From Deinococcales bacterium (GTDB taxonomy: Bacteria; Deinococcota; Deinococci; Deinococcales; JAAFIG01), in the NCBI GenBank assembly GCA_043778225.1, contig JAYWGM010000075.1, positions 11,747 through 75,746 of the forward strand: 64,000 bases of DNA. Direction: 5' to 3'. Below the pieces are notes generated by a model. That model did no database searches, was not told the DNA's origin, and saw only the letters and a program-made list of their open reading frames with translations. Numbering within the stretch: position 1 is the stretch's first letter; each line of letters starts with the position of its first letter. Positions 1 through 64,000 of the stretch are shown one piece after another. Made by a program: the position numbers and the translations under genes.

Positions 1-225
1 GGATTTATCAATGCCAGCCTGCTCAAGCGCGATTTGAATCAGGCTTTGGCGCTCTTCGGCGGTAAACGGATTTTTAATACTGCGGGCATTCTTGGCACTG
101 CCAATCACCACAATTAGTTTTTGTACATTCTCTAGTGCCTCGAGCATGACAGCGATATGCGTTTGGTGTGGCGGCTGAAACCTGCCGATAAAAACGCCAT
201 AGGTGAATTGTGTTTCTGATTTCAT
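1..225 (-). CDS. Nicotinamide-nucleotide adenylyltransferase (NadM/cytidylyltransferase family), N-terminal part; gene runs off the window
   Basis: My translation of the minus strand from the ATG at 225 gives [59 protein letters not shown]. The GRFQPxHxxH motif followed by IxIGSA is typical of NadM-type nucleotidyltransferases. It is absent from the ORF track because it is partial. Confidence 0.6.
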
Positions 226-313
226 GTTATTCATAATAGAATTTTATTTATTAAAAACATGAGATTTAATCTAAGAGTAAACTCGAGTCGGCAAAATTCA
301 AGTCAGCCAAGTC

Positions 314-1126
314 TTATGAAACGACTGTACCCATGCCAGCCAATGCTTTAGAAACGGGTTTCTCAAGCCGTGCATCGCCAAAAATCACCCGTTTACAGCC
401 ACCCTGCACTGCTTCGGCAGCCCCAAGCACTTTTTTCTTCATGCGGTCTTGGGCAAACTCGAGGTACGATTCAACATCGTTGGCTGGGATGTGGGTAATT
501 AAACTCGATTCATCTGGAAAATGACGCAGTAAGCCCGGTACATTAGAAAGTAAAAGTAAGGCTTCGGCTTTGAGTTCGGTTGCCACGGCGGCGGCGGCTC
601 GGTCGCCATCAACGTTAATCGCCACGCCCTCAAAACTCGAGGCGGGTGGCGTTAGCACGGGTAAATATCCGTTCTCGAGCAGCAGATTCAGCAGTGCGCC
701 ATTGACTTTTTCGACTGTGCCAGTATGGTCGCCGCGCAAAATTTTAACCTTGCCATTTTCGACCGACCGAACCGAATCCTTGTGTTTACCTTCAAAAATC
801 CGACCATCCAAACCCGATAAACCGACCGCATTGACTCCACGGCGTTGTAAGCGCTCGACGATGCCTTTATTTTGTTTACCGCAGTAGACCATTTCAAAAA
901 TCTCGAGCGTTTCGCGGTCGGTAAAACGGCTGGTATAGCCACTTGGGCTGGTCACAAATTTAGGCGGATGCCCGAGCAATTCAGCAATTCGGTTGGTCTC
1001 GCTGCTGCCACCATGCACCAAAACAAGTTTTTTACCCTCAAGCCAGAGGTCGGCTATGTCGTTACACACTGCGTCATAATCAATTCCGAGGCTACCGCCA
1101 ACTTTAACAACAATCACAGGCGGCAT
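314..1126 (-). CDS. lysZ: [LysW]-aminoadipate kinase (acetylglutamate-kinase family), AAA lysine pathway
   Basis: ORF 314..1207. VIVVKVGGS...LVLVHGGSSETN...TLEIFEMVYCG...NVDGDRAAAA...GTVVS is nearly collinear with Thermus LysZ as I recall it. I trimmed the start to Met28 (MPPVIVVKVGG), where homologues begin; 1207 is the alternative start. Confidence 0.88.
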   Translation of the reverse strand: MPPVIVVKVGGSLGIDYDAVCNDIADLWLEGKKLVLVHGGSSETNRIAELLGHPPKFVTSPSGYTSRFTDRETLEIFEMVYCGKQNKGIVERLQRRGVNAVGLSGLDGRIFEGKHKDSVRSVENGKVKILRGDHTGTVEKVNGALLNLLLENGYLPVLTPPASSFEGVAINVDGDRAAAAVATELKAEALLLLSNVPGLLRHFPDESSLITHIPANDVESYLEFAQDRMKKKVLGAAEAVQGGCKRVIFGDARLEKPVSKALAGMGTVVS

Positions 1127-1221
1127 TCTAACATTCTGGCAGCCTAAACGATTTTTTTGCCTTGGATTTAAGGTTTCAAGGCGGGAATCGGTACATAAAA
1201 ACCTCATAATAACTATGACTT

Positions 1222-9145: not shown

Positions 9146-10192
9146 ATGGTTCAGGCATTACGACTTCGATTTGCTAACGATTTCTTTGGGCAGACCCGTA
9201 ATCCCTACCGTTTATTTGGACTAATTTTTATTCTGGCAATCTCGATCACGGCGCTGGTTTATGTGACTGGCGGTACAAAATTTGTCTATGTACAACTGAT
9301 GTACATTCCCATTCTTTTGGCAGGTCTACTTTTTAATTTAAGGGCAGCCGTGCTGTTCTCGATTTTGGCGGGTTTATTGATGGGTCCACTGATGCCACTT
9401 GAAGTCTCGAGCCAAGTCTATCAACCACCTGAGGCGTGGTTGTTGCGGACGGTGCTTTTTTGCTTAAATGGCATGACCGCCGGAGCAGTGGCGGGTTTAC
9501 TGCGTTACCGTATTGGTTTACTCGAGAAAGTCAAGCACGAAATTGCCCTGACCTATGGGCGAACCCTACGAGCCTTGGTGGTGCTTATTGCCGAGCGCGA
9601 TGATGAAACCGCCGACCACTCCGAACGGGTGGCATACAATGCGGTCAAAATTGGCGAGGCAATCGGACTAACCCCAGAACGGCTCGAGGTACTTTATTGG
9701 GCGGCGTTACTGCACGACCTTGGCAAAATTGGGATTGCCGAAGCGATTCTCAATAAGCCAGCCGCTTTAACTGCGCCAGAACGACTCGAGATGCAGCGCC
9801 ATGTTGAAATTGGCTATCGTGTGATTGTTCATGCCAGCCGTGATTTTCTACCAATTGCCCAAGTGGTGGCAGCCCACCATGAACGGATTGATGGTCAAGG
9901 GTATCCAAACCGTTTAAGTGGTGAAAACATTCCACTCGAGGCGCGAATTTTAACGGTAATTGATGTTTTTGAAGCCCTGACTTCTAAAAGACCATATCAC
10001 GAAGCAGTGGATAGCCAAACTGCTTTAACGATGATTGTTGCCAGTTCGGGGACACATTTTGATCGCCAAGTGGTTGAAGTTTTTACCGACCTTTTAAGCA
10101 AAAATGATTTGATGACCCATCAAGATCATCATCTGCTCGAGCGAATCAAAGACCGCTATCATGGTGACGGATTATTTTTAGCCAATCTCTAA
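9146..10192 (+). CDS. HD-GYP domain phosphodiesterase with N-terminal membrane module
   Basis: HSERVA...LLHDLGKIGI...HHERIDGQGYP motifs, preceded by about 4 TM helices. Confidence 0.88.
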   Translation: MVQALRLRFANDFFGQTRNPYRLFGLIFILAISITALVYVTGGTKFVYVQLMYIPILLAGLLFNLRAAVLFSILAGLLMGPLMPLEVSSQVYQPPEAWLLRTVLFCLNGMTAGAVAGLLRYRIGLLEKVKHEIALTYGRTLRALVVLIAERDDETADHSERVAYNAVKIGEAIGLTPERLEVLYWAALLHDLGKIGIAEAILNKPAALTAPERLEMQRHVEIGYRVIVHASRDFLPIAQVVAAHHERIDGQGYPNRLSGENIPLEARILTVIDVFEALTSKRPYHEAVDSQTALTMIVASSGTHFDRQVVEVFTDLLSKNDLMTHQDHHLLERIKDRYHGDGLFLANL

Positions 10193-10224
10193 TCTAAATC
10201 CTATATTTGTGCTACCCTGATGCC

Positions 10225-15318: not shown

Positions 15319-15327
15319 GAACGCTCA

Positions 15328-16095: not shown

Positions 16096-16174
16096 GACCC
16101 GTAGAATACCGCATAAATCAGCAGGACATTGGTCAAAACTAAACTTGGTATTGCCCAATACGGTATGATGCTGC

Positions 16175-25900: not shown

Positions 25901-26259
25901 TGGCAGTGCGGATGTCAAAACTGCGTGAACTCGGAGTGCGTTTATCGGTTGATGACTTTGGTACAGGTCACTCGAGTTTAGGTTATTTGCAGCGTTTACC
26001 AGTTGAATGTCTCAAAATTGATCGTTCGTTTATTATTGCCATGGACGCTGGCGGGGAATCCTTGGTGCGCGGTATTATTGATTTAGCCCATAATTTAGGG
26101 ATGACTGTGGTTGCCGAGGGTGTAGAAACCGAATGCCAATGCCAAACCTTAATAGAAATGGGCTGTGACTTTGCCCAAGGCTACTTATTTTCTGAACCAC
26201 TGCCCACCGAAATGCTCGAAAGTTACTTTCAGTCAAGCAGCCATAGCCTCACGCTTTAA
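22930..26259 (+). CDS. CHASE-PAS-PAS-PAS-GGDEF-EAL signalling protein (c-di-GMP turnover)
   Basis: Periplasmic CHASE-like region between two TM helices, three PAS/PAC segments, RMGGDEFTLLL (GGDEF), EALLRW...DDFGTG (EAL). The start could be 22930, 22960 or 22978. Confidence 0.9.
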   Translation: MLLAIDIKLTMAQSDQMIRKYSNLIFPLGAFIFVMIITLSLWTALQRAELMAADERAHSSGREAAAALGQSYIGRQLALERMAQRWAKSDGLPEAEWRSDALGYARDFPDFLAVEWVDTQNVVRWVEPQASNQAVVGRDLSYESVRRLALETARIEQKSVTSPTITLLQGGRGFLSVHPIYRNQVFLGFIIGIFRIETFAFATLKTFAKEGLAFRIFAGSDLIYQLQASAATASRQNLRLGTIVWKLEARATADAIARARTWLPWSVLAAGLFVALLLGVAVYLVGQTAKQSLAITAINHDLTQERDFAKLVLETMGQGLIVTGADGRFTYVNAAFARLVEDSPSRLLGRSISEYTLPSDQELLNKARQERSAGQTTSYEIRLLGDKPVLITGVPRLLAGQFDGSVAVVSDLRQHFDAERILRRERDFTSAILETAGALVIVLDRLGQVVRFNRACEQTTGYTLETFRGLPFWELLIPPQESQAVKLAFLALQAGDFPGVFENHWLTRGGGQRLISWANTVLFDEAGNVEFIIGTGIDITERRLAEEGLRASEARYRAVVTSLEEGVIVQNRAGKIISVNASAERLLGLTCDQLLGQTHFYENLRFIEQNGTPIRAIYSPFSLNSTPRSGQFVGLHRTDGTLLWLSVNSRPLEYSEGGTDGVVSSFFDITERKLAEDQLAYEAMHDALTGLPNRVMFRDRVSDEIRRATREGLTFAVAFVDLDRFKHVNDTLGHGIGDSLLQVIANRLQKAVRDTDMVARMGGDEFTLLLAGVKTPEGAAVVAKKVLNALTPVIHIQGHDLFISGSIGLALYPSDGTDGETLLKNADGALYAAKDAGKNNYQFFNAPTGARVAERLNLETKLRRAFERNEFRLHYQPQVQLPTRQVIGIEALLRWSDPEDGLAVAPLRFVPILEESGMIVPVGAWVMREACTRAAALQNPIRVAVNVSAVQFARSDFLYLIAETLEVSGLAPHLLELELTESVVMRDPEAVAVRMSKLRELGVRLSVDDFGTGHSSLGYLQRLPVECLKIDRSFIIAMDAGGESLVRGIIDLAHNLGMTVVAEGVETECQCQTLIEMGCDFAQGYLFSEPLPTEMLESYFQSSSHSLTL

Positions 26260-29131
26260 TCGTTAGAAGCGAATCCTCAAATAACTCGAGCCTCCCCAAA
26301 GCGTACTGCATGGCTTCTTTAGGACTTAAACTTTTAGCTTGGGCTATAAAAAGCTGTAATTGTTCGGTACTAAAAAACTGGCTGCTTTGCACTTCTATAA
26401 ATTGATTAGGTTCTAAATCATCTAAGTTAAAATCCTGACCGGGCAGGAAACGCCATGTGTTGGCAATCGCATTCAGTCTTAAGCCCTTGGCATGGCGCTG
26501 TTGTTGCTGCATGACCGCCGCACTCAAGGCATAAAAACACGTAAAGCAAGCCGCATCTTGCACTTGCGGACAGAGAAGCCCAAGTTCTTGCAGTAAAGCG
26601 ACAACTCCAAGCCGATTGCCCCGCCGAAACATGACATTGCAAAGTGTCAGCAACGTAGCACATAAATTCACCATGTTTTTGACTTCACGGTAAATCAAAA
26701 TCGCTTGCTCGAGCAGATTCTGAGCTTTTTCTAAATCGTTTTGGGTAATGTAGACATAGGCAAAATTGGCTAAACCATTGGCTAAACCACGTTTATTTTT
26801 GTTAGCTCGAGACTTGCTAATTAAATTTTCAAAAGTCTCAATCGCCAAAGCAGTTTCGCCTTGCTGCCAGTACAAAAACGCCAATGAATTCAAACAATCG
26901 ATTTGGACATTAGCGTTTGGCACATTTTCTAGAATCTCGAGTGCAGCTTTGATACAAGAGCTTGCTCTGTCAAAGTCGCCAATATCGCCGCTAACTTCAC
27001 TAATGGCGTTCAATGCCCTTGCCTGAGCGCTCAAATCACTGATTTCCAAGGCGATTTCTAGGGCAGCTTCGGCATCGGCTAAGCGAACATCGGTGTTGTG
27101 CAAACGCATTCCAAGCACACTGCGAACGGACAGTAAATTGGATCGCGTTGAATCTTGAGCTTGCAACTCAGGTAACTCGAGCAATTGATTTAACCACTGC
27201 ATCCCTAATGGTTTTCGAGCCGCAGCAATCCAAAAATACAGAGTTGAATAGACAATTTTGGCACAGACGAGCGGATTGGTTTTCACCGACCACTCAAGGG
27301 CTAAACTGACGTTCTCAAATTCTTGTTCAAATTGTTTAACCGTCTCGGAAACAGGTTTAGCAGGGTCATGGGTTGCCACTGCCACTGCCCAATCCTGTGC
27401 CAATAAACCGAGCTCGAGTAACGCTGCTTCTTTTTGCACAGGCTCGAGTTGCTGTTCGCTAAATTGGCGAATGACTTCGTGAATAATAAAACGATTATTG
27501 CTACGGGTGATTAAGGACTTGCCGACTAACACAAATAAAATGCTCGGATTGGCTTTAGCGACTCGAGCCAGCGACTCAAGCGTAAATCCACCACGCAACA
27601 AACTCAGCTTAGCCAAAACCAATTGTTGCTCGAGTGTTAATAATTGCCAACTGGCATTAAAAACCGCCCGCATACTGCGGTGACGCAATGGCATATCTGG
27701 TTGATTTGCCAATAGAAAATCCAAGCTCAAATGAATTTCTTGCACCACTTCCTCGAGATTTAAGATTCGCAACCAATGACTGGTCAGTTCTATGGCAAGC
27801 GGTGAGCCTTGCAATAACTGACAAAGCTCGATGACAAAAGGTTTATCTTTAGGCTCAAGGACAAAACGCGGATTGACCCGTTTGGCATTACGTAAAAGCA
27901 GTTGCACCGAATCAAAAATTTCGATTTGCTCCGAATCATTTTTTGGCACATTTAAGCCCAACACATCCACCAAATACTCAGCTTGGACCTGCAGGGCTTC
28001 GCGGCTGGTGATTAAAATACGCAATCTAGGCACAGCCGCTAGTAACTCGAGAATCACCATAGACTCGTCCAGCAAATGCTCCATGTTATCAAGTACCAGC
28101 AACAAATGCTGTTCGGACAAATAATTTTTAAGAAAAACCAATTGATTCTCTAAGCCCTGCGCTGGTAAGTGCAAAGCCGCAATAATGGCTGGCACAAGCG
28201 CATCCACCGCAGCCAAAGGCACAAAAAGTGCCCCATCTGCAAATTGAGCAGCTTGTTCAGTTGCCACCTGAACCGCTAAACGGGTTTTGCCCATGCCGCC
28301 AGCCCCGACCAAAGTAATCAGCCGAACTTCTGGTTGTACAAAAAATGAAGCGATTTCGGATAAATCCACATCTCGCCCAACAAAAGCACTGACTTCTACA
28401 GGAAAATTTTGCAACAACGACTTCTCGATTAGCGCTTGAACAGGTTTTAATTCTAAAGCCGCCGCCAATTGCACGGTCGTTTCGAGTGGCGACAAACCAA
28501 GCTCGAGTTTCAAAACCCTCTTAAACGACTCAAACGCCCTAAGCGCCTCGAGCCGCCCGCCTGTTTGTATCGCACAGTTAAGCAGTAGTTGCAAAATATC
28601 CTCGGCAAGCGGGTCGGTGCTTAAAACCCGCAAGCAAATGGCTTGCGCCGCCTCAAAATTGGCTTCTACCACCAATTGCTTGGCTGCTAAAAGCGCTGTG
28701 TCTCGAAAAGCATTGTGCAGCGCCTCACGCTCTTGCTCGAGCCAATCAGACAAGTCTGGCACATCCGAATGCAACCCACTCAAAAAACTTCCCTGATACA
28801 AATTGAACGCCTCGAGATACTGATTAGAACTCATCAAGCCTTGAAACTCAGCCGCATCCGAGCGCACCAACCAACGCACAAGTTCGCCACTGGACTCGAG
28901 AACCGCAAACTCCAAAGCCCGCACCCGAGACAGCAAATGCCGCAAATTCTTCCGAGCAGCCACCGAATCAGAATCCTCAAAGAACAACACCGACAATGCT
29001 TCTCGAGAAACCCAATCTGCCTTAAAAGCCAAGTATGCCAGCAGCAAAAAACGCTTATCCGATAAGAAAATAACCTCTTGGGACTCGAGGCTTACCTTGG
29101 CAACACCCAGCAGTTGAACAGAAGGAAGCAT
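26249..29131 (-). CDS. AfsR/SARP-like regulator: winged-helix plus BTAD plus NB-ARC ATPase plus TPR (STAND class)
   Basis: ORF 26249..29257 trimmed to Met43 (MLPSVQLLG). wHTH/BTAD region (YQGSFL...WLEQEREAL...LEALRAFESFKRVLKLELGLSP), Walker A GAGGMGKTRLA and C-terminal TPR-like repeats. Confidence 0.85.
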   Translation of the reverse strand: MLPSVQLLGVAKVSLESQEVIFLSDKRFLLLAYLAFKADWVSREALSVLFFEDSDSVAARKNLRHLLSRVRALEFAVLESSGELVRWLVRSDAAEFQGLMSSNQYLEAFNLYQGSFLSGLHSDVPDLSDWLEQEREALHNAFRDTALLAAKQLVVEANFEAAQAICLRVLSTDPLAEDILQLLLNCAIQTGGRLEALRAFESFKRVLKLELGLSPLETTVQLAAALELKPVQALIEKSLLQNFPVEVSAFVGRDVDLSEIASFFVQPEVRLITLVGAGGMGKTRLAVQVATEQAAQFADGALFVPLAAVDALVPAIIAALHLPAQGLENQLVFLKNYLSEQHLLLVLDNMEHLLDESMVILELLAAVPRLRILITSREALQVQAEYLVDVLGLNVPKNDSEQIEIFDSVQLLLRNAKRVNPRFVLEPKDKPFVIELCQLLQGSPLAIELTSHWLRILNLEEVVQEIHLSLDFLLANQPDMPLRHRSMRAVFNASWQLLTLEQQLVLAKLSLLRGGFTLESLARVAKANPSILFVLVGKSLITRSNNRFIIHEVIRQFSEQQLEPVQKEAALLELGLLAQDWAVAVATHDPAKPVSETVKQFEQEFENVSLALEWSVKTNPLVCAKIVYSTLYFWIAAARKPLGMQWLNQLLELPELQAQDSTRSNLLSVRSVLGMRLHNTDVRLADAEAALEIALEISDLSAQARALNAISEVSGDIGDFDRASSCIKAALEILENVPNANVQIDCLNSLAFLYWQQGETALAIETFENLISKSRANKNKRGLANGLANFAYVYITQNDLEKAQNLLEQAILIYREVKNMVNLCATLLTLCNVMFRRGNRLGVVALLQELGLLCPQVQDAACFTCFYALSAAVMQQQQRHAKGLRLNAIANTWRFLPGQDFNLDDLEPNQFIEVQSSQFFSTEQLQLFIAQAKSLSPKEAMQYALGRLELFEDSLLTIKA

Positions 29132-29189
29132 TGTTAGACAACAGTTTACCAGCTTTTTGTGTTGCCGCGTCGCACGGATTCTTATCCAT

Positions 29190-29222
29190 GCGACGCTCAT
29201 GCGACGCTTAGACCAGTAAACT
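29190..29222 (+). promoter_or_regulatory. Candidate activator-dependent promoter A: GCGACGCT-cat-GCGACGCT-N8-TAAACT
   Basis: Read directly in the divergent region between the SARP-like gene and 29277..29732. The same architecture occurs at 32399 and 35193. Confidence 0.6.
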
Positions 29223-29276
29223 GTCCGCATCGCTCGAGAAGAACACCAAAATAGCAAGACTCGAGCAGGAGGATTT

Positions 29277-29732
29277 ATGAAAAAATGGTTCTTAATCTTG
29301 GTTGCAGTATTGGGTTTCTCGGGCTTAGCTGGCGCACAAAAATTCTCGGTCGGTGGCGGTTTAACCAGTCAGTTTCAAAATGGTTTTGTACTGGGTTTTG
29401 GCATTAACTTAGGCGCAGAAGACTTGGTAAAATTCAGCAAAGACTTTGGACTTGATGCTCGAGTTGACCTCGAAGGTTCATTTGGCGCGGGTGCTTTTTT
29501 ATTTGGTTTGGGCGCAGGTGTATACGCTTCGTACCAAATTTCTGATATTGACATTTACTTTGGACCTCGAGTGATTGTGCTACTGTCCCCAGCTTCAGCT
29601 TTTGGCTTTGGGGCGTTGCTCGGTCTGCGTTATGACTTGTCAAATACGCTTGCACTGTACAGCGAAGTACGGTTTTTGTTCACACCAGCTTTTGATTACC
29701 AAGCTGCCCTTGGCGTGCGAATCCTGCTCTAA
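29277..29732 (+). CDS. Small outer-membrane beta-barrel-like protein
   Basis: Signal peptide MKKWFLILVAVLGFSGLAGAQ, an alternating Gly/aromatic beta-strand pattern and the aromatic-rich C-terminal strand FDYQAALGVRILL. AGGAGG SD. Confidence 0.7.
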   Translation: MKKWFLILVAVLGFSGLAGAQKFSVGGGLTSQFQNGFVLGFGINLGAEDLVKFSKDFGLDARVDLEGSFGAGAFLFGLGAGVYASYQISDIDIYFGPRVIVLLSPASAFGFGALLGLRYDLSNTLALYSEVRFLFTPAFDYQAALGVRILL

Positions 29733-29747
29733 AAACCTTCTCTTGCG

Positions 29748-29774
29748 AGGCTCGAGACCCCCTACTCGAGCCTC
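29748..29774 (+). terminator. Hairpin built from two CTCGAG sites (GAGGCTCGAG-acccccta-CTCGAGCCTC)
   Basis: Perfect 10-bp inverted repeat 16 nt after the stop at 29732. There is no T-run, so terminator function is uncertain. Confidence 0.4.
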
Positions 29775-30014
29775 CACACCAAACCTTAAAAGACCAAAAG
29801 CTCGAGCAATCAAGGACTCGAGTCAGGTGAAACATTTTCAAATTTGCACTCTCTCAAGCGTTACAGGGAAAACAAGTATGACCAAAGAACCTTTGCAAAC
29901 CTATGTTCGACCAGTCCTCGAGCCGCAACCAGCCTATGCACTGGTGACTGCTGGTTTTTCTTTTCCTGTTGGTTCAACTTCGGCACTTGAACCCTTGAAT
30001 GATGTGGAGAAAAA

Positions 30015-34242: not shown

Positions 34243-34311
34243 AGACAAGGCTTTTGATGACGTTATACAAAGAGCCCAATCCCTAGAAGCGTTCCGTCCC
34301 CGTCTTGAGTC

Positions 34312-34794
34312 CTAGAGGTGTTCTTGCAACCGATCTTGCACCCGCCAGAGTAGTTGAATCAGTTTCTCTTGCTCTTTTGGACTCAGCACCTCCATCCATA
34401 TTTTTTCTGCGCGGTGAATCGGTACGCGCACTTCGTCCGCTACCCTGCGCCCCTCATCGGTGATTTCAACAAGGAGCATTCGGCGGTCCGACGGGTGCGG
34501 TTTGCGCTGGACGTAACCCCGGCGTTCAAGTGAGTCGAGCAATCCGGTGATGGTCGCTCGGGTCACGACCAGTCTATCGCTAATCTCGTGCGGCGAGAGG
34601 GGACTGTTCGCATTTGCCAATGCGATCAGTGCCAGCCCCGTGGCGATACTGAGGTCGAACGGACGCTTAATTGTCTCGATGTGACTGAGCAAAAGATCAT
34701 TGGTGCGGACGATGTTCAAGACGCACTCTGTGGCTTTTCTGCTACTCTCGGGCCAGCGTTGCTCGAATCCTTCGGATAGTGTTATGTGTTGCAT
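34312..34794 (-). CDS. MarR family transcriptional regulator
   Basis: wHTH region LSPHEISDRLVVTRATITGLLDSLERRGYVQRKPHPSDRR. Confidence 0.9.
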   Translation of the reverse strand: MQHITLSEGFEQRWPESSRKATECVLNIVRTNDLLLSHIETIKRPFDLSIATGLALIALANANSPLSPHEISDRLVVTRATITGLLDSLERRGYVQRKPHPSDRRMLLVEITDEGRRVADEVRVPIHRAEKIWMEVLSPKEQEKLIQLLWRVQDRLQEHL

Positions 34795-34857
34795 GGTGTG
34801 CTATTCTCCTTCTTTTTACTATTGGCACAGATAATCAGCACCAAGATAGTTAGGGAC

Positions 34858-34886
34858 TTGACAAATTTAGTTTGACCCCTTATTAT
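34858..34886 (+). promoter_or_regulatory. Sigma-70-type promoter TTGACA-17-TATTAT, divergent from marR
   Basis: Exact hexamers and 17-nt spacer read directly. Confidence 0.55.
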
Positions 34887-35014
34887 CACCTTACAAGCAA
34901 TCAGGTCGGGTGTAAAGATACATTCGTAATCACGCGACACACATGCAAGGCCTCTGCTGAGAAACGACCTATCTGGCTGGTTAAAACTTGGCGCTCTGAA
35001 TACTCGAAGTGTCT

Positions 35015-35129
35015 AAGAAAATACCTCACGCAATCATTTTCGCATTTACCAAGATTTTGACATCAAAACCCCAACATCCCCGAACGCCCTTGAAGTCGAA
35101 AGGAGCGAAGTGTCAAGTATTGTCTGTCC
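35015..35129 (+). repeat. Leader module copy 1 (49-nt block identical to 36757-36805; second block 35078-35129 about 88% identical to 36863-36913)
   Basis: Direct comparison of the two loci. Confidence 0.9.
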
Positions 35130-35192
35130 TAGACCATTGTTTGCATCCATGATACCCACAACCCCCAATGCCGAGCTGGGCTGGAAGTCCAC

Positions 35193-35225
35193 GCGACGCT
35201 CACGCAACGCACCCTTTGGCATACT
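35193..35225 (+). promoter_or_regulatory. Candidate promoter C: GCGACGCT-cac-GCAACGCA-N8-CATACT
   Basis: Same spacing as A and B, but the second repeat is degenerate. It lies 114 nt upstream of 35339. Confidence 0.4.
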
Positions 35226-35338
35226 GGCATCGTTCACCTATTGAATACCAGCCGTCAGTGTGGCTCTTGTGTTCGCAGCAAAGGAGAATACGTATTTTGG
35301 CACTCGACCCCAAGCCCTCTAGCCCAAAGGAGAAAAGC

Positions 35339-35623
35339 ATGACTACCCTATTTGTAAGACACCAAGTGAGCAATTTTGATAACTGGAAAAAGATCTACGA
35401 CGAGCTTGGAGCTACTCGCGAAAAGATGGGGGTCAGCGCAGCCAGCGTCCACCGTGATGGTACCGACCCCAATACAGTAATGGTTACCCACCGGTTTCCC
35501 AACATCGGTGCAGCCACCGCTTTTGCCAACTCCGAGGAACTCAAAGCTGGCATGGGACGGGCTGGGGTTACCAGCCAACCGGAGATGTGGTTTACCGACG
35601 ACGTTGAACACACCGCGCACTAG
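35339..35623 (+). CDS. Small alpha/beta-barrel (ABM/Dabb-like) protein, paralogue 1
   Basis: ORF 35168..35623 trimmed to MTTLFVRHQV with an AAAGGAG SD. Paralogous to 37028..37297. Confidence 0.7.
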   Translation: MTTLFVRHQVSNFDNWKKIYDELGATREKMGVSAASVHRDGTDPNTVMVTHRFPNIGAATAFANSEELKAGMGRAGVTSQPEMWFTDDVEHTAH

Positions 35624-35855
35624 ACCAAAGCTAGAACACTCGCTCGAGACCACCTGAATTTTGCAAGCAACCATCGAGCCAGTCTGGGATATTCTTTCCG
35701 ACCCCTACACTGGCTCACTTGATTCCCAACGTTTTGTAAGGTGCGCTCGAGCACCGCACTACCTACCTATTTTGGAGTTTTATACCGAAGGTACGGTATT
35801 ACTAATTAGGCTGGTGTCAGTAAACTCACATTAGAAATAACCAAGGTGTCTGAAA

Positions 35856-36377
35856 ATGCTAACTATTTCTCAAGTCAACTCAGAAGCCGAAATTGTAGCT
35901 GTTCAAGAACTAATGCGCGAATACGCAACGTGGGCTTTCACACTCATCCCGGGCAGTAATGAAGCGCCTACTTGGGAGGGATTCGACGAGGAGTTGGCGA
36001 CATTACCCGGTATTTATGCACCACCAGGGCGTTTACTACTAGCCATGCAAGATGGAAAGCCAGCAGGGTGTGTATGTCTCAAAGCACATGATGCCAATAC
36101 CAGTGAACTCAAGCGGCTCTACGTGCGTCCCATCTTTCGGGGACAAAACATTGGTCAGCAATTAGTCAAAATTCTTGTTAAAGAGGCACGTCAATCCAGA
36201 TATCAACGGATCGTGCTGGATAGCCACGCTTCGATGAAAAAAGCACATGCAATCTATTTGGAAGTTGGATTTAGATTGGTGAGCGCCCCGAATGATTTTC
36301 CAGAGGAACTCAAACCAGTTGTGGTGTTCATGGAGTGTGATCTATCTGATGCAACCAATGAAAATGAAGTAGATTGA
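35856..36377 (+). CDS. GNAT family N-acetyltransferase
   Basis: RLYVRPIFRGQNIGQQLV acetyl-CoA binding motif (R/Q-x-x-G-x-G/A). Confidence 0.88.
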   Translation: MLTISQVNSEAEIVAVQELMREYATWAFTLIPGSNEAPTWEGFDEELATLPGIYAPPGRLLLAMQDGKPAGCVCLKAHDANTSELKRLYVRPIFRGQNIGQQLVKILVKEARQSRYQRIVLDSHASMKKAHAIYLEVGFRLVSAPNDFPEELKPVVVFMECDLSDATNENEVD

Positions 36378-36756
36378 AAGTGTTACAGACTTTATTCGCA
36401 CTGCGCCCAACTCAGCGTGTAGCCGACCCGTCCAGTTGCATCCAGAGAAGGCTTTTTTTGCACAATAGATAACGCAAAACCAAAAATATTTGAACCACTA
36501 TGTCAAAACATGATTTGCCACTGAGACTGTTGGTAATGTCCAAAAAAACCTAACAAAGCAGGGATCTATTCAAATGATTAGATGATCTTCCGTTTCATAC
36601 ACAACCCTCTTGGAATTTACATAAGCAATATCAGTTTTTTTCTGTTTACGACACTGATTTTCTGGTTCCTCGAGAAATCAATCAAATCAATTCACAACTT
36701 GCTTAAAAATACACTCTTCCCAAAGTTGCTTGGCAGTACACAATTGCAAAAAACTC

Positions 36757-39365: not shown

Positions 39366-40418
39366 TCACTCGAGGTCATCACGCATTTTTTCCATTTTCT
39401 CGAGGGCTTCGCGTCTGGTCTCCATGTCCATCTTGGCATAAATAGCCGAAGTATTGACACTGGCATGACCGAGTAAATCTGCAACAACGTGTAAATCCTT
39501 GGTGGCTCGGTACAAGTGCGTTCCAGCAGTTCGCCGCAGCGTATGCAGTCCCCACATCTCACTTGGTAGCCCAGCGCCCACGTAATAACCCTTGGCTATA
39601 AATCTTGCGCCATGCGTGGTTAAACGCCGTCCGTGACGCTGATTCCTCGAGATACTGACAATCAGTGCTTTTTCGATTTCAGGAATTTCACCGCGCAATT
39701 CAAGACCACCCCGCACCTCGAGCCAACGCTTCAATAAAAGAATCAATTCGTTAGCAATCGGTATAATGCGTTTTTTGCCGCCTTTACCGCTTTGGACTGT
39801 GATTCGTTTAAGACTAATTTCAACGTCGGTCACATCTAAACTAATGATTTCTTTGGCTCGCAACCCACCCGAGCCACCAAGCGCAATTAAAAGTCCATCT
39901 CGAGTACGACGCGGGTCGTCCACATTGTACTTCTCGAGTGGTGCATTAACAATTTCACGGTACAGGGCAGGGGAGAGCGCCGACTTTTTCAAATGGGCTG
40001 GGGTGGGGTCTCGAGGGGCTTTGACCTCGGCGGCAGGATTGACTGTTGTGGCTTTTGCCCAAATTAAAGCGCGATACAAACAACGAACACCATTTAAGTA
40101 CGTGATGATGCTCCCAGCTTTCATGCCCTCAGCTTGCAAAGTCACCAACCAAGTTTCCATATCATCCGCCTCGAGCCGTGTGACCTCGAGCCGATTAGAA
40201 GCTCGGCTACAAAACTCGAGAAAGCGCTTGACCGACGCAGCATAGAGGAGACGAGTATCGTTAGAAGTTAAGGCTTTACGCGCACTTTTTAGGGTTAAGT
40301 AATGGTTTAGTAACTCGAGCAGGGTAGCCAAGTCTTGTTCGTGTGCGGCGCGGACAGCTTCGCGTTTACGGTTTTCAGCAGATTGGAATTTACTGGAAAG
40401 AACTAGCTCGAGACTCAT
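39366..40418 (-). CDS. Tyrosine recombinase/integrase (XerC/D-like)
   Basis: SAM-like N-domain, then RAKEI...HTLRRTAGTHLY...LLGHASVNTSAIY (R..HxxR..Y catalytic set). Confidence 0.9.
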   Translation of the reverse strand: MSLELVLSSKFQSAENRKREAVRAAHEQDLATLLELLNHYLTLKSARKALTSNDTRLLYAASVKRFLEFCSRASNRLEVTRLEADDMETWLVTLQAEGMKAGSIITYLNGVRCLYRALIWAKATTVNPAAEVKAPRDPTPAHLKKSALSPALYREIVNAPLEKYNVDDPRRTRDGLLIALGGSGGLRAKEIISLDVTDVEISLKRITVQSGKGGKKRIIPIANELILLLKRWLEVRGGLELRGEIPEIEKALIVSISRNQRHGRRLTTHGARFIAKGYYVGAGLPSEMWGLHTLRRTAGTHLYRATKDLHVVADLLGHASVNTSAIYAKMDMETRREALEKMEKMRDDLE

Positions 40419-46670: not shown

Positions 46671-48425
46671 ATGAAACGAACCCACTATTGTAATGACCTC
46701 TCGCAAAGCCACGTCGGTCAAATTGTGACCTTAAACGGCTGGGTTTCTCGAGTGCGCGAATTCCCCGATACCCGTTTTATTGTGCTGCGTGACCGCTCTG
46801 GCATCGTGCAAATTACGGTAGACTCGAGCAATTTATGTTTTGCGATCGCCGACCAGTGCAAGTCCGAATATGTTCTCGAGGTCGTAGGAATTGTTCAGGC
46901 TAGAAGCGAGCAAAATAAATCGGCTGCCTATGCCACGGGTGCAATAGAAATTATTCCAACCACTCTCGAGATTTTAGCCAAATCCAAACCCGTACCGTTT
47001 CCAGTGGATGGCACGCCAATCACCACCTCCGAAGAAATTCGCTTAAAGTATCGCTATTTGGATTTGCGCCGTGAGCCTTTGCGCGAAGCCTTAAAGCTGC
47101 GCTCTAAAACAATTTCGAGTATTTATCAGTTTTTGGACTCCGAAGGTTTTATCAGTGTCGAAACACCAATGCTGACCAAATCCACCCCAGAAGGCGCACG
47201 AGATTACCTTGTTCCAAGCCGTACCAGTGCTGGCAATTTTTATGCGCTGCCGCAAAGTCCACAGCTTTTTAAGCAACTTTTGATGATTGCTAATTTTGAT
47301 AAGTATTTCCAGATTGCGCGTTGTTTTCGTGATGAAGATTTACGAGCCGACCGCCAACCAGATTTTACGCAACTCGATATTGAGATGAGCTTTGTGGATG
47401 TGGACGATGTTCTTTTATTAAACGAACGTTTGATTCAACACGTTTTTAAGCAAACCCTAAATGTGGATGTACCTCTCCCCTTGCCGCGTCTAAGCTATGA
47501 AGATGCACTTAACCGCTTTGGTTCAGATAAACCCGACCAGCGTTTTGGTCTCGAGATTCAAGATGTCTCAGGAATCGTTGCAGAAACTGGGTTTGCGGTC
47601 TTCAAAACTGCCCTCGAGTCTGGCGGAACGGTACGGGTTTTAACTGTACCAGCCGAACTCAGCCGTAAACAAATCGAAAGCCTCGAGCAAGTGGCAAAAC
47701 AAAATGGTGCAAAAGGCTTGGCATGGACAAAAGCCACCGCTTTGGGTTTTGAAGGCGGAATCGCTAAGTTCCTCTCCCCTGCCGAAGTTGCTTTGTTGCT
47801 CGAGCAAACAGGTGCAGTTATAGGGCAGACGCTACTTTTTGGGGCAGATACTCGAGATACAGCCCTCAAGGCTTTAGGTGCGGTTCGCTTGGCATTGCGC
47901 GACGAGTTAAAACTGATTAGCGCAGATTCGCCACGCTTTCACTTTTCTTGGATTACAGATTTCCCGTTGCTCGAGTGGGATGAAGACAACCAGCGTTTTA
48001 CCTTTATGCACCACCCGTTTACCAGCCCGAGTCTGGAAGATATGCACAAATTTGGAACAGCCGAAATGGGCAGCATGAAGGCTCGAGCTTATGATTTAGT
48101 CCTAAATGGTTATGAAGTTGGCGGCGGTAGCATCCGAATTCACCAGCCAGAAATCCAAGAAAAAATGTTTAACGCGATTGGTTTTAGCACACTTCAGGCT
48201 CGAGAACGCTTTGGGTTTTTTATGGAAGCGCTCGAGTATGGCACACCACCACATGGCGGAATTGCATGGGGCTTAGACCGTATGGTGTCAGTCATGGCTG
48301 GGGCTGAGACCATCCGCGATGTGATTGCTTTTCCTAAAAACACCAAGGGTATAGACATTATGGCAGATGCACCAAGTATCGTGGACGAAAAACAACTGGC
48401 GGATTTGCATATCAAATTGCGCTAA
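46671..48425 (+). CDS. aspS: Aspartate--tRNA ligase
   Basis: OB-fold N-domain, FQIARCFRDEDLRADRQPDFTQLD (motif 2), the bacterial insertion domain and GGGSIR...GLDR (motif 3). Confidence 0.95.
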   Translation: MKRTHYCNDLSQSHVGQIVTLNGWVSRVREFPDTRFIVLRDRSGIVQITVDSSNLCFAIADQCKSEYVLEVVGIVQARSEQNKSAAYATGAIEIIPTTLEILAKSKPVPFPVDGTPITTSEEIRLKYRYLDLRREPLREALKLRSKTISSIYQFLDSEGFISVETPMLTKSTPEGARDYLVPSRTSAGNFYALPQSPQLFKQLLMIANFDKYFQIARCFRDEDLRADRQPDFTQLDIEMSFVDVDDVLLLNERLIQHVFKQTLNVDVPLPLPRLSYEDALNRFGSDKPDQRFGLEIQDVSGIVAETGFAVFKTALESGGTVRVLTVPAELSRKQIESLEQVAKQNGAKGLAWTKATALGFEGGIAKFLSPAEVALLLEQTGAVIGQTLLFGADTRDTALKALGAVRLALRDELKLISADSPRFHFSWITDFPLLEWDEDNQRFTFMHHPFTSPSLEDMHKFGTAEMGSMKARAYDLVLNGYEVGGGSIRIHQPEIQEKMFNAIGFSTLQARERFGFFMEALEYGTPPHGGIAWGLDRMVSVMAGAETIRDVIAFPKNTKGIDIMADAPSIVDEKQLADLHIKLR

Positions 48426-52103: not shown

Positions 52104-52432
52104 GCATAACGATTTTTGGCAAGGAATTTATAGACAGCATCGCGCACAAATTTTGGCACAATCAGCAGTGCAAATGCCCAAGACCACGGCGCACCCAAGG
52201 CTCGAGCCAAGCGCAAAACCGCCTCCGAACGCGAATAGACCACGCCATTCTCGAGAAAAATCATGCTCTCGAGTCTGGTTGTATCCACCCCAAAAGGCTC
52301 GAGTTTATCTTGTGCGGCTTTGGATTGTAGGGCGGCAAAAACAATGGTTTTTTGTGTATCATGGCGCAAAATCCATTGCACCGTACCATTGCACAAATTA
52401 CAAACACCGTCAAAGAACAGAATGCGTTCCAT
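52037..52432 (-). CDS. Thiol-disulfide oxidoreductase DCC family (DUF393)
   Basis: ILFFDGVCNLCNGTVQWILRHD contains the DxxCxxC motif. Confidence 0.85.
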   Translation of the reverse strand: MERILFFDGVCNLCNGTVQWILRHDTQKTIVFAALQSKAAQDKLEPFGVDTTRLESMIFLENGVVYSRSEAVLRLARALGAPWSWAFALLIVPKFVRDAVYKFLAKNRYAWFGRQVSCMMPTPELKKRFLS

Positions 52433-52506
52433 GGATTTAGTTTACTGCCCAAAGCTCGAGATTTTGTCCCAGAGGAGGCTATGCGCTTTGGGCAAGACGT
52501 TTCCTC

Positions 52507-60948: not shown

Positions 60949-60968
60949 ACTTTATTACCTTTTGACCT

Positions 60969-62009
60969 TTAGGCGTAGCTTGCCATAACCTTATCAAGGC
61001 TTTCACGGTTTGGTCGGGTCAGGCTTTCTGGCAAAAGCGCCAACGCGGTATCATGGACGTGTTCGGTGTCTATTAAAGTGCGGCGGCTTTCATTGAGGTA
61101 CACCAAGCCCGTCACCAATTCGCCACTGCGCTGACCGTCTTGCAGTAACTTTAAGGCGCTGAGTTTATCGGTTGGGTTGTGGTCTTTGGAAAGTTTTTTA
61201 AGTTGAATCGTTGGACCTTCGTGCAGCTTGACGCTCAGGACTTCGCCGGGTTCGTAATCCACAGCAATTTCGTTAAAATCTTGAACAAATGTAATATCGT
61301 GAATCGGCACTTCGTGTTCTTTACCGTAACTGTAACTCTTGGTACTGCTTTCGTCGTTATTAAAAGTGACGCAGGGCGAAATAATATCCAGCACCGCAAT
61401 ACCGTTAAAGCTCAAGGCTGCTTTTAAGAGTTCGGTGACTTGTTTGGCATCGCCAGCAAAACTACGGGCTACAAAACCAGCCCCTGCCACGATTGCTTCA
61501 GCGCACAAATCGAGCGGCGGTTGTTCATTTGTGCCAGCGTATTTGAGGGTTTGCCCTTCGTCGGCAGTGGCGCTAAATTGACCCTTGGTTAAACCATACA
61601 CACCATTATTTTCGATGATGTAAACCATCGGAACATTGCGGCGCACAATATGCTTAAACTGCCCAAGTCCAATGCTGCCAGAGTCGCCGTCGCCCGAGAC
61701 TCCAATTGCCGTCTGGTGGCGTTGTGCCAACATTGCACCCGTGGCAACGCTCGGCATCCGCCCGTGAACCGTGTTGATGCCGTGTGCGCCGTTCATAAAA
61801 TAAGCTGGCGATTTACTCGAGCAACCAATACCGCTTAGTTTCATGACTTCGTGGGGCTTTAAGCCAATTTGGTATGCCGCGTCAATAATTCGCATCGAGA
61901 TGCTGTCGTGTCCGCAACCGGGGCAAAGGGTACTGGTTAAACCTTTGTAATCGGCTTTGGTCAGTCCAACGCTGTTGGTATTTTCGGGCTTGGGGGCAAC
62001 TGCAGTCAT
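60969..62009 (-). CDS. korB: 2-oxoglutarate/2-oxoacid:ferredoxin oxidoreductase beta subunit
   Basis: CPGCGH, TPP-binding GDGDSGSIG...NNGVYGLTKGQ. ORF 60969..62030 trimmed to the ATG at 62009 (AAGGAG SD, 1 nt after the korA stop). Confidence 0.9.
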   Translation of the reverse strand: MTAVAPKPENTNSVGLTKADYKGLTSTLCPGCGHDSISMRIIDAAYQIGLKPHEVMKLSGIGCSSKSPAYFMNGAHGINTVHGRMPSVATGAMLAQRHQTAIGVSGDGDSGSIGLGQFKHIVRRNVPMVYIIENNGVYGLTKGQFSATADEGQTLKYAGTNEQPPLDLCAEAIVAGAGFVARSFAGDAKQVTELLKAALSFNGIAVLDIISPCVTFNNDESSTKSYSYGKEHEVPIHDITFVQDFNEIAVDYEPGEVLSVKLHEGPTIQLKKLSKDHNPTDKLSALKLLQDGQRSGELVTGLVYLNESRRTLIDTEHVHDTALALLPESLTRPNRESLDKVMASYA

Positions 62010-62010
62010 G

Positions 62011-63843
62011 TTATTTGACTCCTTTGGCAAGGGATTGGGTCACTCGAGTGGCGACAAATTCACCACTCAGCGGCAAGCCGTCGCAGTGGGCAATGCTGTG
62101 AATCCGCACCGCAAATTCTGGATACTCGGTGCGTAGCAAAATCGCCAATTGACCATGCTGGTTCATTTCAACCACAATCACTTTTTCGTGGTTGGCAATA
62201 AATTCTTGGACTTCTGCGCCAAATGGCAACGCCCGAACTCGCATATAGTCGGTTGCAACACCATCCTGAGCCAGCATCACTCGACCTTCGACCATGGCTG
62301 GGTCTACGCTGCCCATCGCAATTAAGCCAAGGCTCGAGCCAGAGCCATCTATGATGGCTTTTGGCACAATGTCTCGGGCGTGGTTGTGCTTACGGTCTAA
62401 ACGCGCCAAGTTGTCCTGCCAGTCTTTGGGGCGTTCGGAATAGGTTGCCAGGTCGGTGTGACCCGTGCCTCGAGTAAAGTAGGCTGCGCCCATTGCGTCT
62501 GTTCCTGGCAAAGTGCGCGGTCCAACGCCTAAGCCGTCTACGTCTTTATAGCGGGCAAAAGTATAGCCAGCATTTTTGACATCTTCGGCGCTTAAAACCT
62601 TACCACGATTCATTGGCTCGGTTGGGTATTCAAATGGCTCGGACATCCAGATGTTCATGCCCAAATCCAAATCGGAATTGACAAAAACTGGAGTTTGTAG
62701 TTGGTCAGCCAAGTCAAAGGCTCGCCAGCCAAACTCAAAGCATTCTTTGGGGTCAGACGGCAGCAACACAATATGTTTGGTGTCGCCGTGCGACAAGTAA
62801 TAGGTGCTGAGTAAATCGCCCTGCGAGACTCGAGTCGGCAAACCAGTGCTTGGACCCATGCGCTGGACATTCCAAATCACAATTGGCACTTCGGCAAAAT
62901 AGGCATAACCCGCAAATTCGGACATTAAGGAAATTCCAGGACCCGAAGTGCTGGTCATGGCTCGAGCGCCAGCCCAGCCAGCCCCAATCAGCATCCCGAT
63001 AGCCGCAAGTTCGTCTTCGGCTTGGACAATTGCAAAAGTGGCTTTGCCCGTTTCTTTGTCTTGGCGCAGCTTTGGCATCCATTCAATCATGCCGTCGGCA
63101 AGGCTGGTGGCTGGGGTAATTGGATACCATGCCAGCACCGTGCAGCCACCATAAATTCCGCCGAGTGCGCCAGCCATATTGCCATCTATAAGAATTTTAC
63201 CTTTGGTGGCATCCATTCGTTCAACACGGTATGGGTCGGATTTTGTAAGGTTGGCAGCGCACCAGTCAAAAGCGGCTTTGGCAATACTGAAATTACTCTC
63301 GACAACTTTGGTTTTGCCAGCGAAGTTTTTGTTTAAGTAGGCATAGATTGTCTCCATCTCGATGCCAATGACTTGCGCCACTGCACCGACATAGACTAAG
63401 TTAATCATGCGGTCTCGAAATTTGGGGTCTACATTTTGTTCTTTCATAATGGCATTGGCGGGCAACGCATAGACACTGACATCATCTCTCGAGCCAACCA
63501 ACTTGATGTTGTCGGGGTAAAACATCACGCCGCCCGTTGGCAAAGTACGGAAATCTTCTTCGATAGATTTGGCATTAAACGCCACCAGAATTTCGGAGTT
63601 ATCGCGCCGCGCTGTAAAACCCGCCCCACTGGCACGTATCGAATACCAAGTTGGTAGCCCTTTGATGTTGCTCGGGAATAAATTCTTAGCGTTGACCGGA
63701 ATACCCATTTGAAATAAGGCATTGACAAGCGTAGCGTTGGCGGTCTGTGAACCTGAACCGTTGACCGTAGCGACGTTAATCGTAAAATCATTGATTATCG
63801 GAGCGCGATTGGTGCTGACTGGACGTTCTGCGAGTTGCGTCAT
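62011..63843 (-). CDS. korA: 2-oxoglutarate/2-oxoacid:ferredoxin oxidoreductase alpha subunit
   Basis: 610 aa with a fused gamma-like N-domain (NVATVNGSGSQTAN) and the alpha domain (YPITPATS...). Confidence 0.9.
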   Translation of the reverse strand: MTQLAERPVSTNRAPIINDFTINVATVNGSGSQTANATLVNALFQMGIPVNAKNLFPSNIKGLPTWYSIRASGAGFTARRDNSEILVAFNAKSIEEDFRTLPTGGVMFYPDNIKLVGSRDDVSVYALPANAIMKEQNVDPKFRDRMINLVYVGAVAQVIGIEMETIYAYLNKNFAGKTKVVESNFSIAKAAFDWCAANLTKSDPYRVERMDATKGKILIDGNMAGALGGIYGGCTVLAWYPITPATSLADGMIEWMPKLRQDKETGKATFAIVQAEDELAAIGMLIGAGWAGARAMTSTSGPGISLMSEFAGYAYFAEVPIVIWNVQRMGPSTGLPTRVSQGDLLSTYYLSHGDTKHIVLLPSDPKECFEFGWRAFDLADQLQTPVFVNSDLDLGMNIWMSEPFEYPTEPMNRGKVLSAEDVKNAGYTFARYKDVDGLGVGPRTLPGTDAMGAAYFTRGTGHTDLATYSERPKDWQDNLARLDRKHNHARDIVPKAIIDGSGSSLGLIAMGSVDPAMVEGRVMLAQDGVATDYMRVRALPFGAEVQEFIANHEKVIVVEMNQHGQLAILLRTEYPEFAVRIHSIAHCDGLPLSGEFVATRVTQSLAKGVK

Positions 63844-64000
63844 CGAAAAAGTACCTCGAGAGAAAAGAAAGAATTTTTAGCTCGAGCCACCGTGACCCGA
63901 GTACCGCCCTGCATTTTAGCAAACTCGAGGACTCGAGAATGGGCATTTTGCCCACAGAGTTTACGTGCCTTTGACGGGGACAACAAGAATTGCCCTATAC

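Follow-up and report, generated by a model that had tools for sequence, protein, structure and literature searches.

The window analyzed here, a 64,000-nt stretch of DNA from a Deinococcales bacterium with 48.3% GC, comes from a metagenome contig of 97.5 kb (ENA ERZ27314325 k141_692632) and is populated over its whole length (positions 1..64000) by the palindromic hexamer CTCGAG, for which an exact count gave 361 sites at a mean density of 5.6 per kb. The gene model comprises 59 genes, with doubtful calls checked against Pfam. An aspartyl-tRNA synthetase (AspRS) gene, recognized by its NCBIfam match (46671..48425, plus strand), contains 13 of the sites and was used as the marker for mapping both site positions and the hyper-abundance trait across lineages. 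The gene for a SARP/TPR-like regulator (26249..29257, minus strand) contains 19 sites (6.3 per kb), and a Xer-like tyrosine-recombinase gene (39366..40418, minus strand) contains 12 and is among the densest genes at 11.4 per kb. The recombinase gene is probably resident rather than part of a mobile element, because a Phage_integrase-family gene also lies near hisS/aspS in related loci. Outside genes, five sites (29751, 29765, 29801, 29817, and 29917) are packed at ∼18 per kb into 29733..30014, a stretch without a supported gene (the open reading frame at 29575-30018 had no Pfam match). The intergenic stretch 52104..52506 carries five more (52201, 52250, 52268, 52298, and 52455), and another at 63844..64000 carries four (63855, 63881, 63924, and 63932). 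An island at 34243..36668 with MarR, ABM-like, and GNAT genes is poor in the word, having two copies, neither of them genic.

The abundance of CTCGAG was compared with Markov, masked-background, and shuffle nulls. The Markov expectation was 14.5 copies at order 0, 8.8 at order 1, 24.7 at order 2, and 97.7 at order 3, corresponding to observed/expected ratios of 24.9x, 41x, 14.6x, and 3.7x, respectively, and CTCGAG ranked first among hexamers by z-score in the models that were ranked (orders 1 and 3; z = 26.6 at order 3). The order-4 ratio of 1.15x is uninformative because the 5-mers CTCGA and TCGAG arise mostly from the CTCGAG sites themselves; when these sites were masked from the background model, the expectation fell to 5.6-7.0 copies, for an excess of 52-64x. 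Dinucleotide-preserving shuffles yielded 8.3 ± 3.1 copies with a maximum of 18. CTCGAG is the most frequent hexamer of the window, the seven words at ranks 2-8 all overlap it, and the runner-up palindromic hexamer, AAATTT, occurs 42 times. A sequence-only reading of this DNA had estimated about 360 sites, and the exact counts bore out that estimate along with its local tallies: the first 3 kb contain 22 copies, the SARP-like gene contains 19, and positions 63850-63940 contain 4. The k-mer census that it had proposed as a check, run here on the window, likewise made CTCGAG an extreme outlier. The excess is almost certainly a DNA-level phenomenon of the type known as highly iterated palindromes (HIP). 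A short GC-rich palindrome occurring at least ∼15-fold over expectation marks that type, and CTCGAG exceeds expectation by 25-64x in the window, depending on the model.

We examined whether coding constraints account for the excess by sorting the sites according to reading frame. Genes contain 316 sites, distributed as CTC-GAG (189), xCT-CGA-Gxx (73), and xxC-TCG-AGx (54), and the remaining 45 lie outside genes, where the density is higher than in coding DNA (7.2 versus 5.5 per kb). Shuffling synonymous codons within genes, which preserves the proteins and the already inflated codon usage, yielded 38.1 ± 5.5 genic sites (maximum of 54), shuffling codon order yielded 17.1, and each reading frame stood 7-11x above the synonymous-codon null. 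The proposal that the excess is not a codon-pair effect was thus upheld, as was the claim that sites occupy all three frames and are dense in non-coding DNA. Occupancy was high wherever the protein sequence permits the word: 189 of 296 Leu-Glu dipeptides (64%) are spelled CTC-GAG, although non-motif codon usage (CTC for 10% of Leu and GAG for 26% of Glu) predicts ∼2.6%, and among tripeptides the word is carried by 60% of those of the form [TPAS]-Arg-[VADEG] and by 36% of those of the form X-Ser-[Ser/Arg].

The signal is confined to the six bases. No base exceeds 36% at any flank position, all 16 NCTCGAGN octamers are present, and the flank composition is near background; therefore, the bare hexamer is the unit rather than part of a repeat element, in agreement with the earlier view that no extended flanking consensus exists. 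The commonest flanked octamer, GCTCGAGC, has 42 copies among the 361 sites, and the rarest, CCTCGAGG, accounts for 4 of the 361, with ∼10 expected from flank frequencies. A dispersed element of the repetitive extragenic palindromic or miniature inverted-repeat type was ruled out, as the copies share nothing beyond the core, and a signal of TCGA only was also ruled out, as TCGA outside CTCGAG (192 sites) is not enriched. Spacing between sites is near exponential (mean of 177 nt, median of 119.5 nt, coefficient of variation of 0.98), and there is no sign of regular spacing at scales visible within 64 kb. Gaps of more than 500 nt occur about as chance predicts (18 versus 21.5 expected), whereas short gaps are fewer than Poisson expectation (6 versus 19.7 for ≤10 nt and 17 versus 38.4 for ≤20 nt), so that the impression that sites often come in close pairs proved mistaken. 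Taken together, the counts describe a genome-wide DNA-level pressure that is specific to the exact hexamer and uniform over frames and non-coding DNA.

This pressure is also visible in proteins. In those of the window, no dipeptide is more over-represented than Leu-Glu (2.28x), and the pressure adds extra Leu-Glu, x-Arg-x, and x-Ser-Ser/Arg to them. Across 13 clade members, AspRS has 30 CTCGAG site positions, often at residues that are conserved among the outgroups; the clade has Leu-Glu in place of Leu-Thr/Leu-Gly, Phe-Glu, or Leu-Lys, and in one example Ala-Arg-Ala where the outgroups keep Ala-Gln-Ala. Changes from Val or Ile to Leu in separate trait-positive branches appear from the alignment to be independent gains, each converting GTCGAG or ATCGAG to CTCGAG by a transversion at position 1, so the comparison of relatives that had been suggested as a check for convergent substitution appears to give a positive answer in AspRS. 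Leu-Glu is kept in distant orthologues at 90% of positions spelled with CTCGAG and at 35% of those spelled otherwise, and a Leu-Glu found only in the relative is CTCGAG in 40 of 53 cases. The conserved entity is the DNA word and not the peptide.

The positions of the sites were then compared between relatives. CTCGAG was retained at 62-72% of aligned positions in relatives with 78-82% nucleotide identity and at 45-72% in relatives with ∼70% identity, and the pooled retention of window sites was 0.66 for close and 0.62 for distant relatives. By comparison, hexamers taken as a whole were retained at 0.30 in close and 0.16 in distant relatives, same-composition words at 0.26 and 0.23, respectively, and four-fold synonymous sites outside the motif were 36-54% identical, which is near saturation. 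All other contigs with the genes of the window were 100% identical to it. Retention changes little with distance, and its plateau is roughly equal to the occupancy of permissive positions (∼60-64%), as expected for a stationary, position-independent pressure. Leu-Glu dipeptides conserved in distant relatives were also sorted by their spelling in the window: where this is CTCGAG, the relative likewise carries the motif in 91 of 108 cases (84%), and where it is not, in 6 of 7. The pressure overrides protein sequence and holds an occupancy equilibrium at ∼60% of synonymously permissive positions.

Words that differ from CTCGAG by one base behave differently from the full site. They are kept less well than the average hexamer (0.11 in close and 0.09 in distant relatives), and 18-22% of them are full CTCGAG in the relative; therefore, near-sites are transient states. 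In abundance, all three changes at the outer position stand 2.2-2.6x over expectation, transitions stand at 1.5x for position 2 and 2.4x for position 3, and transversions at position 2 are depleted (0.39x). The T-containing deamination neighbors CTTGAG and CTCAAG, whose depletion would be the footprint of Vsr-type repair and had been put forward as support for biased repair, are instead in 2.4x excess (59 versus 24.6 expected).

To place the trait phylogenetically, we used the AspRS of the window, whose relatives at 74-90% identity are found only in uncultured "Deinococcales/Deinococcota bacterium" metagenome-assembled genomes, many of them from glacier-fed-stream and similar projects; AspRS of named Deinococcus species comes next at 57-60% identity. 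The clade is uncultured, of cold freshwater, and related to Deinococcus. In all 15 related loci from the genome collection (GC 44-59%), CTCGAG outnumbers every other hexamer, with densities of 3.0-8.1 per kb, compared with 0-0.28 per kb in 37 unrelated loci from the same search. When further lineages were sampled along the gradient of AspRS identity, the word was abundant in L424 (78% AspRS identity; 6.0 per kb), L420 (71%; GC 0.60; 4.4 per kb), L422 (63%; GC 0.75; 5.8 per kb), and L419 (61%; GC 0.59; 9.0 per kb, with 144 sites versus 6.1 expected). Across the 20 trait-positive loci examined (GC 44-75%), CTCGAG always ranks first among hexamers, with 3-9 copies per kb. Two uncultured lineages are interleaved with these positives: L418 (67%; GC 0.63) lacks the trait at 0.32 per kb, and L421 (68%; GC 0.51) shows it weakly at 1.1 per kb, 8x over expectation without being the top hexamer. 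The trait is also absent from D. maricopensis (L417; 59%; GC 0.70; 0.28 per kb) and from D. radiodurans plasmid MP1 (L423; GC 0.63; 0.16 per kb), and no trait-positive cultured species was apparent among the 120 best AspRS matches.

This map uses one 12-22 kb locus per lineage and a single-gene neighbor-joining AspRS tree without support values; the trait needs at least two state changes on any tree, and GC content is not the explanation. The trait is heritable and is on or off between neighboring lineages. As a protein-level proxy, the Leu-Glu count in AspRS is mostly 8-15 in trait-positive lineages, 6-7 in L418 and L421, and 1-7 in named Deinococcus. The AspRS genes of L418 and L421 (at 10001-11755), with their 6-7 Leu-Glu compared with 1-4 in most Deinococcus, have several of these dipeptides at the CTCGAG columns of the clade but spelled CTGGAA, CTTGAG, or TTGGAA, and they may be protein-level relics of a lost drive. 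The trait recurs in independent assemblies from NCBI, JGI, ENA, and Logan. Besides the genome with the contig of the window, assemblies scored as positive include JANNVX01, JAAFIG01, JANXTZ01, JGI 3300035014 Ga0370532_0002, JGI 3300022561 Ga0212090_10003267, and ERZ26165054 contig_9, and those scored as negative or weak include ERZ28593234 LIUY22-1 scaffold_499 and GCA_965191025.1. Two viral scans and one metagenome scan with triple-site patterns returned mostly high-GC genomes, tandem repeats, and chance matches; their productive yield was a phage contig, described below, and L317 (1-12761; JAESGJ010000050.1; GC 0.61; 5.6 sites per kb), a relative of L007 that encodes tsf and pyrH. The metagenome scan that gave L317 also gave L345 (1-1778; GC 0.62), the densest sequence seen, at 12.9 sites per kb. 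The clade DNA examined amounts to ∼0.4 Mb, roughly 10% of one genome's worth.

DNA that is foreign to these cells, or that resides in them as phage, offers a further view of the pressure. The longest CTCGAG-free gaps of the window lie at 34.2-36.7 kb, and the island at 34243-36668 also contains both copies of GGCC (34751 and 34949) present in the entire window, where 261 ± 14 are expected, a depletion of ∼130-fold. GATC, which is depleted in the window overall (52 sites), is enriched across the 34-38 kb bins around the island. The island is probably recently acquired DNA that does not yet bear the host oligonucleotide signature. The 34-36 kb bin has the most one-mismatch variants of CTCGAG (15) of any 2-kb bin. 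The rarity of GGCC extends to the contig flanks (L175 and L178) and some sister genomes (L003 and L011), with 0-1 copies, and in L007, L419, and L420 it is only ∼2-3-fold below the composition expectation; GATC is not depleted in L011 or L007. The GGCC pattern is a strong, lineage-variable avoidance of a HaeIII-type site. Avoidance of GGCC and GATC differs among sister lineages, as footprints of restriction-modification (R-M) do, while the CTCGAG excess is without such variation.

The phage contig L235 (1-14541; IMG/VR UViG_3300021185_002377; GC 0.44) encodes tape-measure and virion proteins of a tailed-phage structural module. It has 30 CTCGAG versus 4.4 expected, a ∼7x enrichment at about a third of the host density, and no GGCC versus ∼35 expected; TCGA (185) and GATC (133) are over-represented in it. 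L235 is probably a phage of the CTCGAG-rich clade, the host being assigned from this signature only. Its enrichment in CTCGAG argues against restriction at that word and suggests that DNA residing in cells of the clade acquires CTCGAG.

To our knowledge, HIP1, the cyanobacterial palindrome GCGATCGC, has gone unexplained for ∼30 years and has been described only in cyanobacteria. HIP1 was the right analogue for the sequence-only reading to have named, since both words are hyper-abundant in coding and non-coding DNA, conserved in position, and clade-wide with exceptions. Like CTCGAG, HIP1 is a short, GC-rich palindrome, 15-300x over expectation, that occurs in all reading frames and between genes, is conserved at orthologous positions above controls, and is spread through its clade with some lineages lacking it (PMC4390886, PMC5861425). 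CTCGAG differs in belonging to the phylum Deinococcota and in being an unrelated word of 6 nt rather than 8, without the GATC/CGATCG core that is read by DmtA/DmtC in HIP1 proper. Its density of 5.6 per kb compares with 0.3-2.7 per kb for HIP1 (Elhai, PMC4390886), or ∼2-19 times the HIP1 range, and its one-mismatch variants are unstable, whereas those of HIP1 (HIP1*) are conserved in cyanobacteria.

Alternate HIPs show that the phenomenon is not tied to one word and include 5-6-mers of restriction-site type: GGCGCC in Calothrix PCC 7103, GCsGC in Cyanothece PCC 7822, rCCGGy in Oscillatoria PCC 10802, GGGATCCC in Synechococcus JA strains, and CAGGCCTG in Synechococcus PCC 6312 (PMC4390886). CTCGAG is not among them. 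They are known from single genomes, and from cyanobacteria only, in contrast to the trait described here, which spans a multi-species clade with GC of 44-75%. Each co-occurs with a methyltransferase predicted to recognize the word, an association reported in the same work as the ratchet model discussed below (PMC4390886). The sequence-only reading was not aware of a described CTCGAG equivalent, and the searchable literature, which leaves most subscription journals uncovered, yielded no report of CTCGAG hyper-abundance or of a HIP-type word outside cyanobacteria. CTCGAG extends the HIP-like phenomenon to another phylum and to a different word, one that is shorter and denser than HIP1.

We favor methylation-linked biased repair as the driver of the excess, with a probability of roughly 0.4, and all of its methylation steps are inferred. 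Members of the clade would possess a DNA system directed at this sequence, with an orphan CTCGAG methyltransferase as its likeliest form, and mismatches or recombination heteroduplexes would be corrected toward the strand with the complete, methylatable site. Such a correction bias would amount to an Elhai-type methyl-directed ratchet, a form of biased gene conversion, acting at each site regardless of how many sites already exist. It would account for the high density, random spacing, equal saturation of frames, and unstable one-mismatch variants, as well as for spill-over into resident phage but not into fresh foreign DNA. Because the benefit of a single site should be negligible when a genome has ∼17,000 of them (an extrapolation to a 3-Mb genome), a per-site conversion bias explains the saturation, spacing, unstable near-sites, and phage spill-over better. 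Gain or loss of a single gene or system would produce the patchiness of the trait across lineages. More tentatively, this Deinococcus-related radiation may have an independently evolved motif ratchet, in which biased gene conversion or repair would drive the hexamer to near-saturation, rewrite proteins, and switch between sister lineages. The dense "self" mark could possibly be used secondarily in natural transformation or recombination, as has been reported for HIP1.

Several observations weigh against biased repair linked to methylation. No methyltransferase, Vsr-like, or XhoI-family gene was found in the window, the 97.5-kb contig, or ∼0.4 Mb of clade DNA, although this absence is weak evidence because that sample is roughly 10% of one genome's worth. 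The comparison of equal occupancy at conserved Leu-Glu has only 7 cases in one arm. Repair of deamination products in the plain Vsr manner is contradicted, given that CTTGAG/CTCAAG is 2.4x enriched and many gains are position-1 transversions. The Dcm/Vsr system of E. coli demonstrates that repair bias linked to a methyltransferase can alter how often a short palindrome and its neighbors occur throughout a genome, yet that effect stays below 2-fold and involves only the correction of T:G to C:G, compared with an excess of 25-60x, a deamination product that is not depleted, and gains that include transversions for CTCGAG. Furthermore, Xu et al. take the positional conservation of HIP1 as evidence of selection and not of replenishment (PMC5861425), and a reading of this kind is equally possible for CTCGAG.

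The search for a cognate methyltransferase covered several sources. Methyltransferase motifs (NPPY-type, and PCQ with ENV) gave only chance matches, located in transporters and small open reading frames, when all open reading frames of the window, the contig flanks, and the clade loci were scanned. Pfam and NCBIfam annotation of the window genes included no DNA-modification gene, and none was present in the ∼10 kb of the source contig on either side of the window. The TCGA core is shared by M.TaqI, whose sequence, checked against the PDB, was used as a probe. In a large protein collection its only matches were genuine TaqI orthologues, of Thermus, Anaerolineae, Armatimonadota, and similar groups, and against plasmids it gave 1,731 unspecific N6-methylase matches with specificity not assignable. 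A Xanthomonas methyltransferase paper contained CTCGAG only in primers. Orphan CTCGAG methyltransferases do exist (PMC4752239). The conserved enzyme of Nocardia acts on the same hexamer and has no restriction partner (Blow et al. 2016, PMC4752239), but CTCGAG enrichment in that genus is local, at the replication origin between dnaA and a DNA polymerase III gene, and not genome-wide (PMC4752239). The Nocardia case shows that a housekeeping role is possible for CTCGAG methylation.

The chief alternative, which could well operate alongside the drive, is that CTCGAG serves as a self mark in transformation or recombination, as is now proposed for methylated HIP1. The sites would be selected individually as a species "watermark" for transformation uptake, in the manner of the DNA uptake sequence (DUS) of Neisseria or the uptake signal sequence (USS) of Pasteurellaceae, or for recombination, in the manner of Chi; we regard this as a serious contender but an unlikely one. 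DUS and USS are genome-wide over-represented short words that mark "self" DNA for transformation, are recognized by a dedicated receptor, tolerate coding regions, and are missing from recent acquisitions. CTCGAG resembles them in being a genome-wide short word that is tolerated in coding regions and missing from recently acquired DNA. DUS and USS are 9-12-nt, non-palindromic words present at ∼1 per kb and often paired in terminators; CTCGAG is a 6-nt palindrome without an extended consensus, and so short a word offers little specificity as a receptor ligand. Individual selection would fit the conservation of CTCGAG far above controls, its creation at the cost of amino-acid changes, its absence from foreign-looking DNA, and the natural transformability of Deinococcus relatives. 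From cyanobacteria, methylated HIP1 raises transformation >100-fold in Synechococcus PCC 7002 (bioRxiv 10.1101/2024.09.10.611283), and HIP1 abundance co-varies with proteins that the preprint terms Type IV secretion system proteins and connects with DNA uptake (bioRxiv 10.64898/2026.06.24.733823); both findings count for a watermark. With ∼17,000 sites per 3 Mb by extrapolation, however, one more site should bring too little fitness gain for selection to fill 60% of permissive positions at the expense of protein sequence, the random spacing reveals no coverage requirement, one-mismatch variants are not conserved as HIP1* sites are, and the probable phage L235 also carries the excess.

An architectural role is improbable. 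CTCGAG would then bind or load an abundant DNA-binding protein peculiar to the lineage and acting in nucleoid compaction, chromosome domains, or segregation, and its density would be under selection for chromosome architecture, a possibility in keeping with the unusually condensed nucleoids of Deinococcus and with the conservation and clade-wide presence of the word. A 10-90 kb periodicity of HIP1 has been interpreted in this way (PMC5861425). CTCGAG shows no regular spacing at scales visible in 64 kb, its density is above that of any known architectural site, no candidate protein was identified, and the trait is absent in close sister lineages that presumably share the same nucleoid biology.

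Still less credible is an active R-M system of the XhoI/PaeR7I type, with the excess merely coexisting with full protective methylation. CTCGAG is a classical type II site and its methylation has been reported in several prokaryotes, but such systems select against their own sites and include no force that creates them. An R-M footprint consists of a shortage of the recognition site in host and phage DNA alike; GGCC illustrates such avoidance in the window (2 versus 261 expected), and CTCGAG has the opposite sign, with phage L235 enriched rather than depleted. Of the three explanations offered by the sequence-only reading, obligatory full methylation with a cognate XhoI-type system was the least consistent with the data, as it provides no cause for the excess and the phage is ∼7x enriched. 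Finally, a codon or dipeptide by-product, a dispersed repeat, or an assembly or adapter artefact is refuted, even though 60% of genic sites are CTC-GAG (Leu-Glu) and high-GC genomes reach 2-6 CTCGAG per kb, by the codon-preserving nulls (38 and 17 versus 316), the highest density in non-coding DNA, the missing flanking consensus, the agreement of independent assemblies (NCBI, JGI, ENA, and Logan), and a GC-matched lineage, L418 (GC 0.63), with only 0.3 per kb.

Natural competence and an exceptional capacity for DNA repair are hallmarks of the phylum of Deinococcus. A second word there, unrelated to HIP1, makes what had been an isolated oddity into a class of phenomenon. With the trait on or off among close lineages of similar GC, nature has provided an experiment in which a few complete genomes could pinpoint the genes concerned. 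If the ratchet reading is true, phyletic comparison could identify the machinery behind highly iterated palindromes, HIP1 included. Whether CTCGAG is methylated could be read directly from existing long-read metagenomes, such as JGI 3300035014 with its 1.4-Mb contig. Motif pressure on proteins can mislead analyses of dN/dS, codon usage, and convergence. The CTCGAG k-mer is also a sharp signature for binning and host assignment of the clade and its phages.

Two further gene families on the contig merit mention. Two genes for Uma2-family (PF05685) PD-(D/E)XK nucleases, ∼52% identical to each other, lie on the one 97-kb contig, at 45815-46387 of the window and at 9252-9836 of flank L178; the former is situated between hisS and aspS and is conserved in L002 and L005. 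Cyanobacteria, in which highly iterated palindromes also occur, have a greatly enlarged Uma2 family. A connection between these nucleases and CTCGAG was considered and set aside as pure speculation that is not supported, there being only 2 copies in ∼100 kb. A family-B DNA polymerase gene (727 aa, with DNA_pol_B_exo1, RNase_H_2, and DNA_pol_B domains) is located at 15209-17392 of flank L175, on the contig of the window and ∼4 kb beyond the window start, among housekeeping genes.

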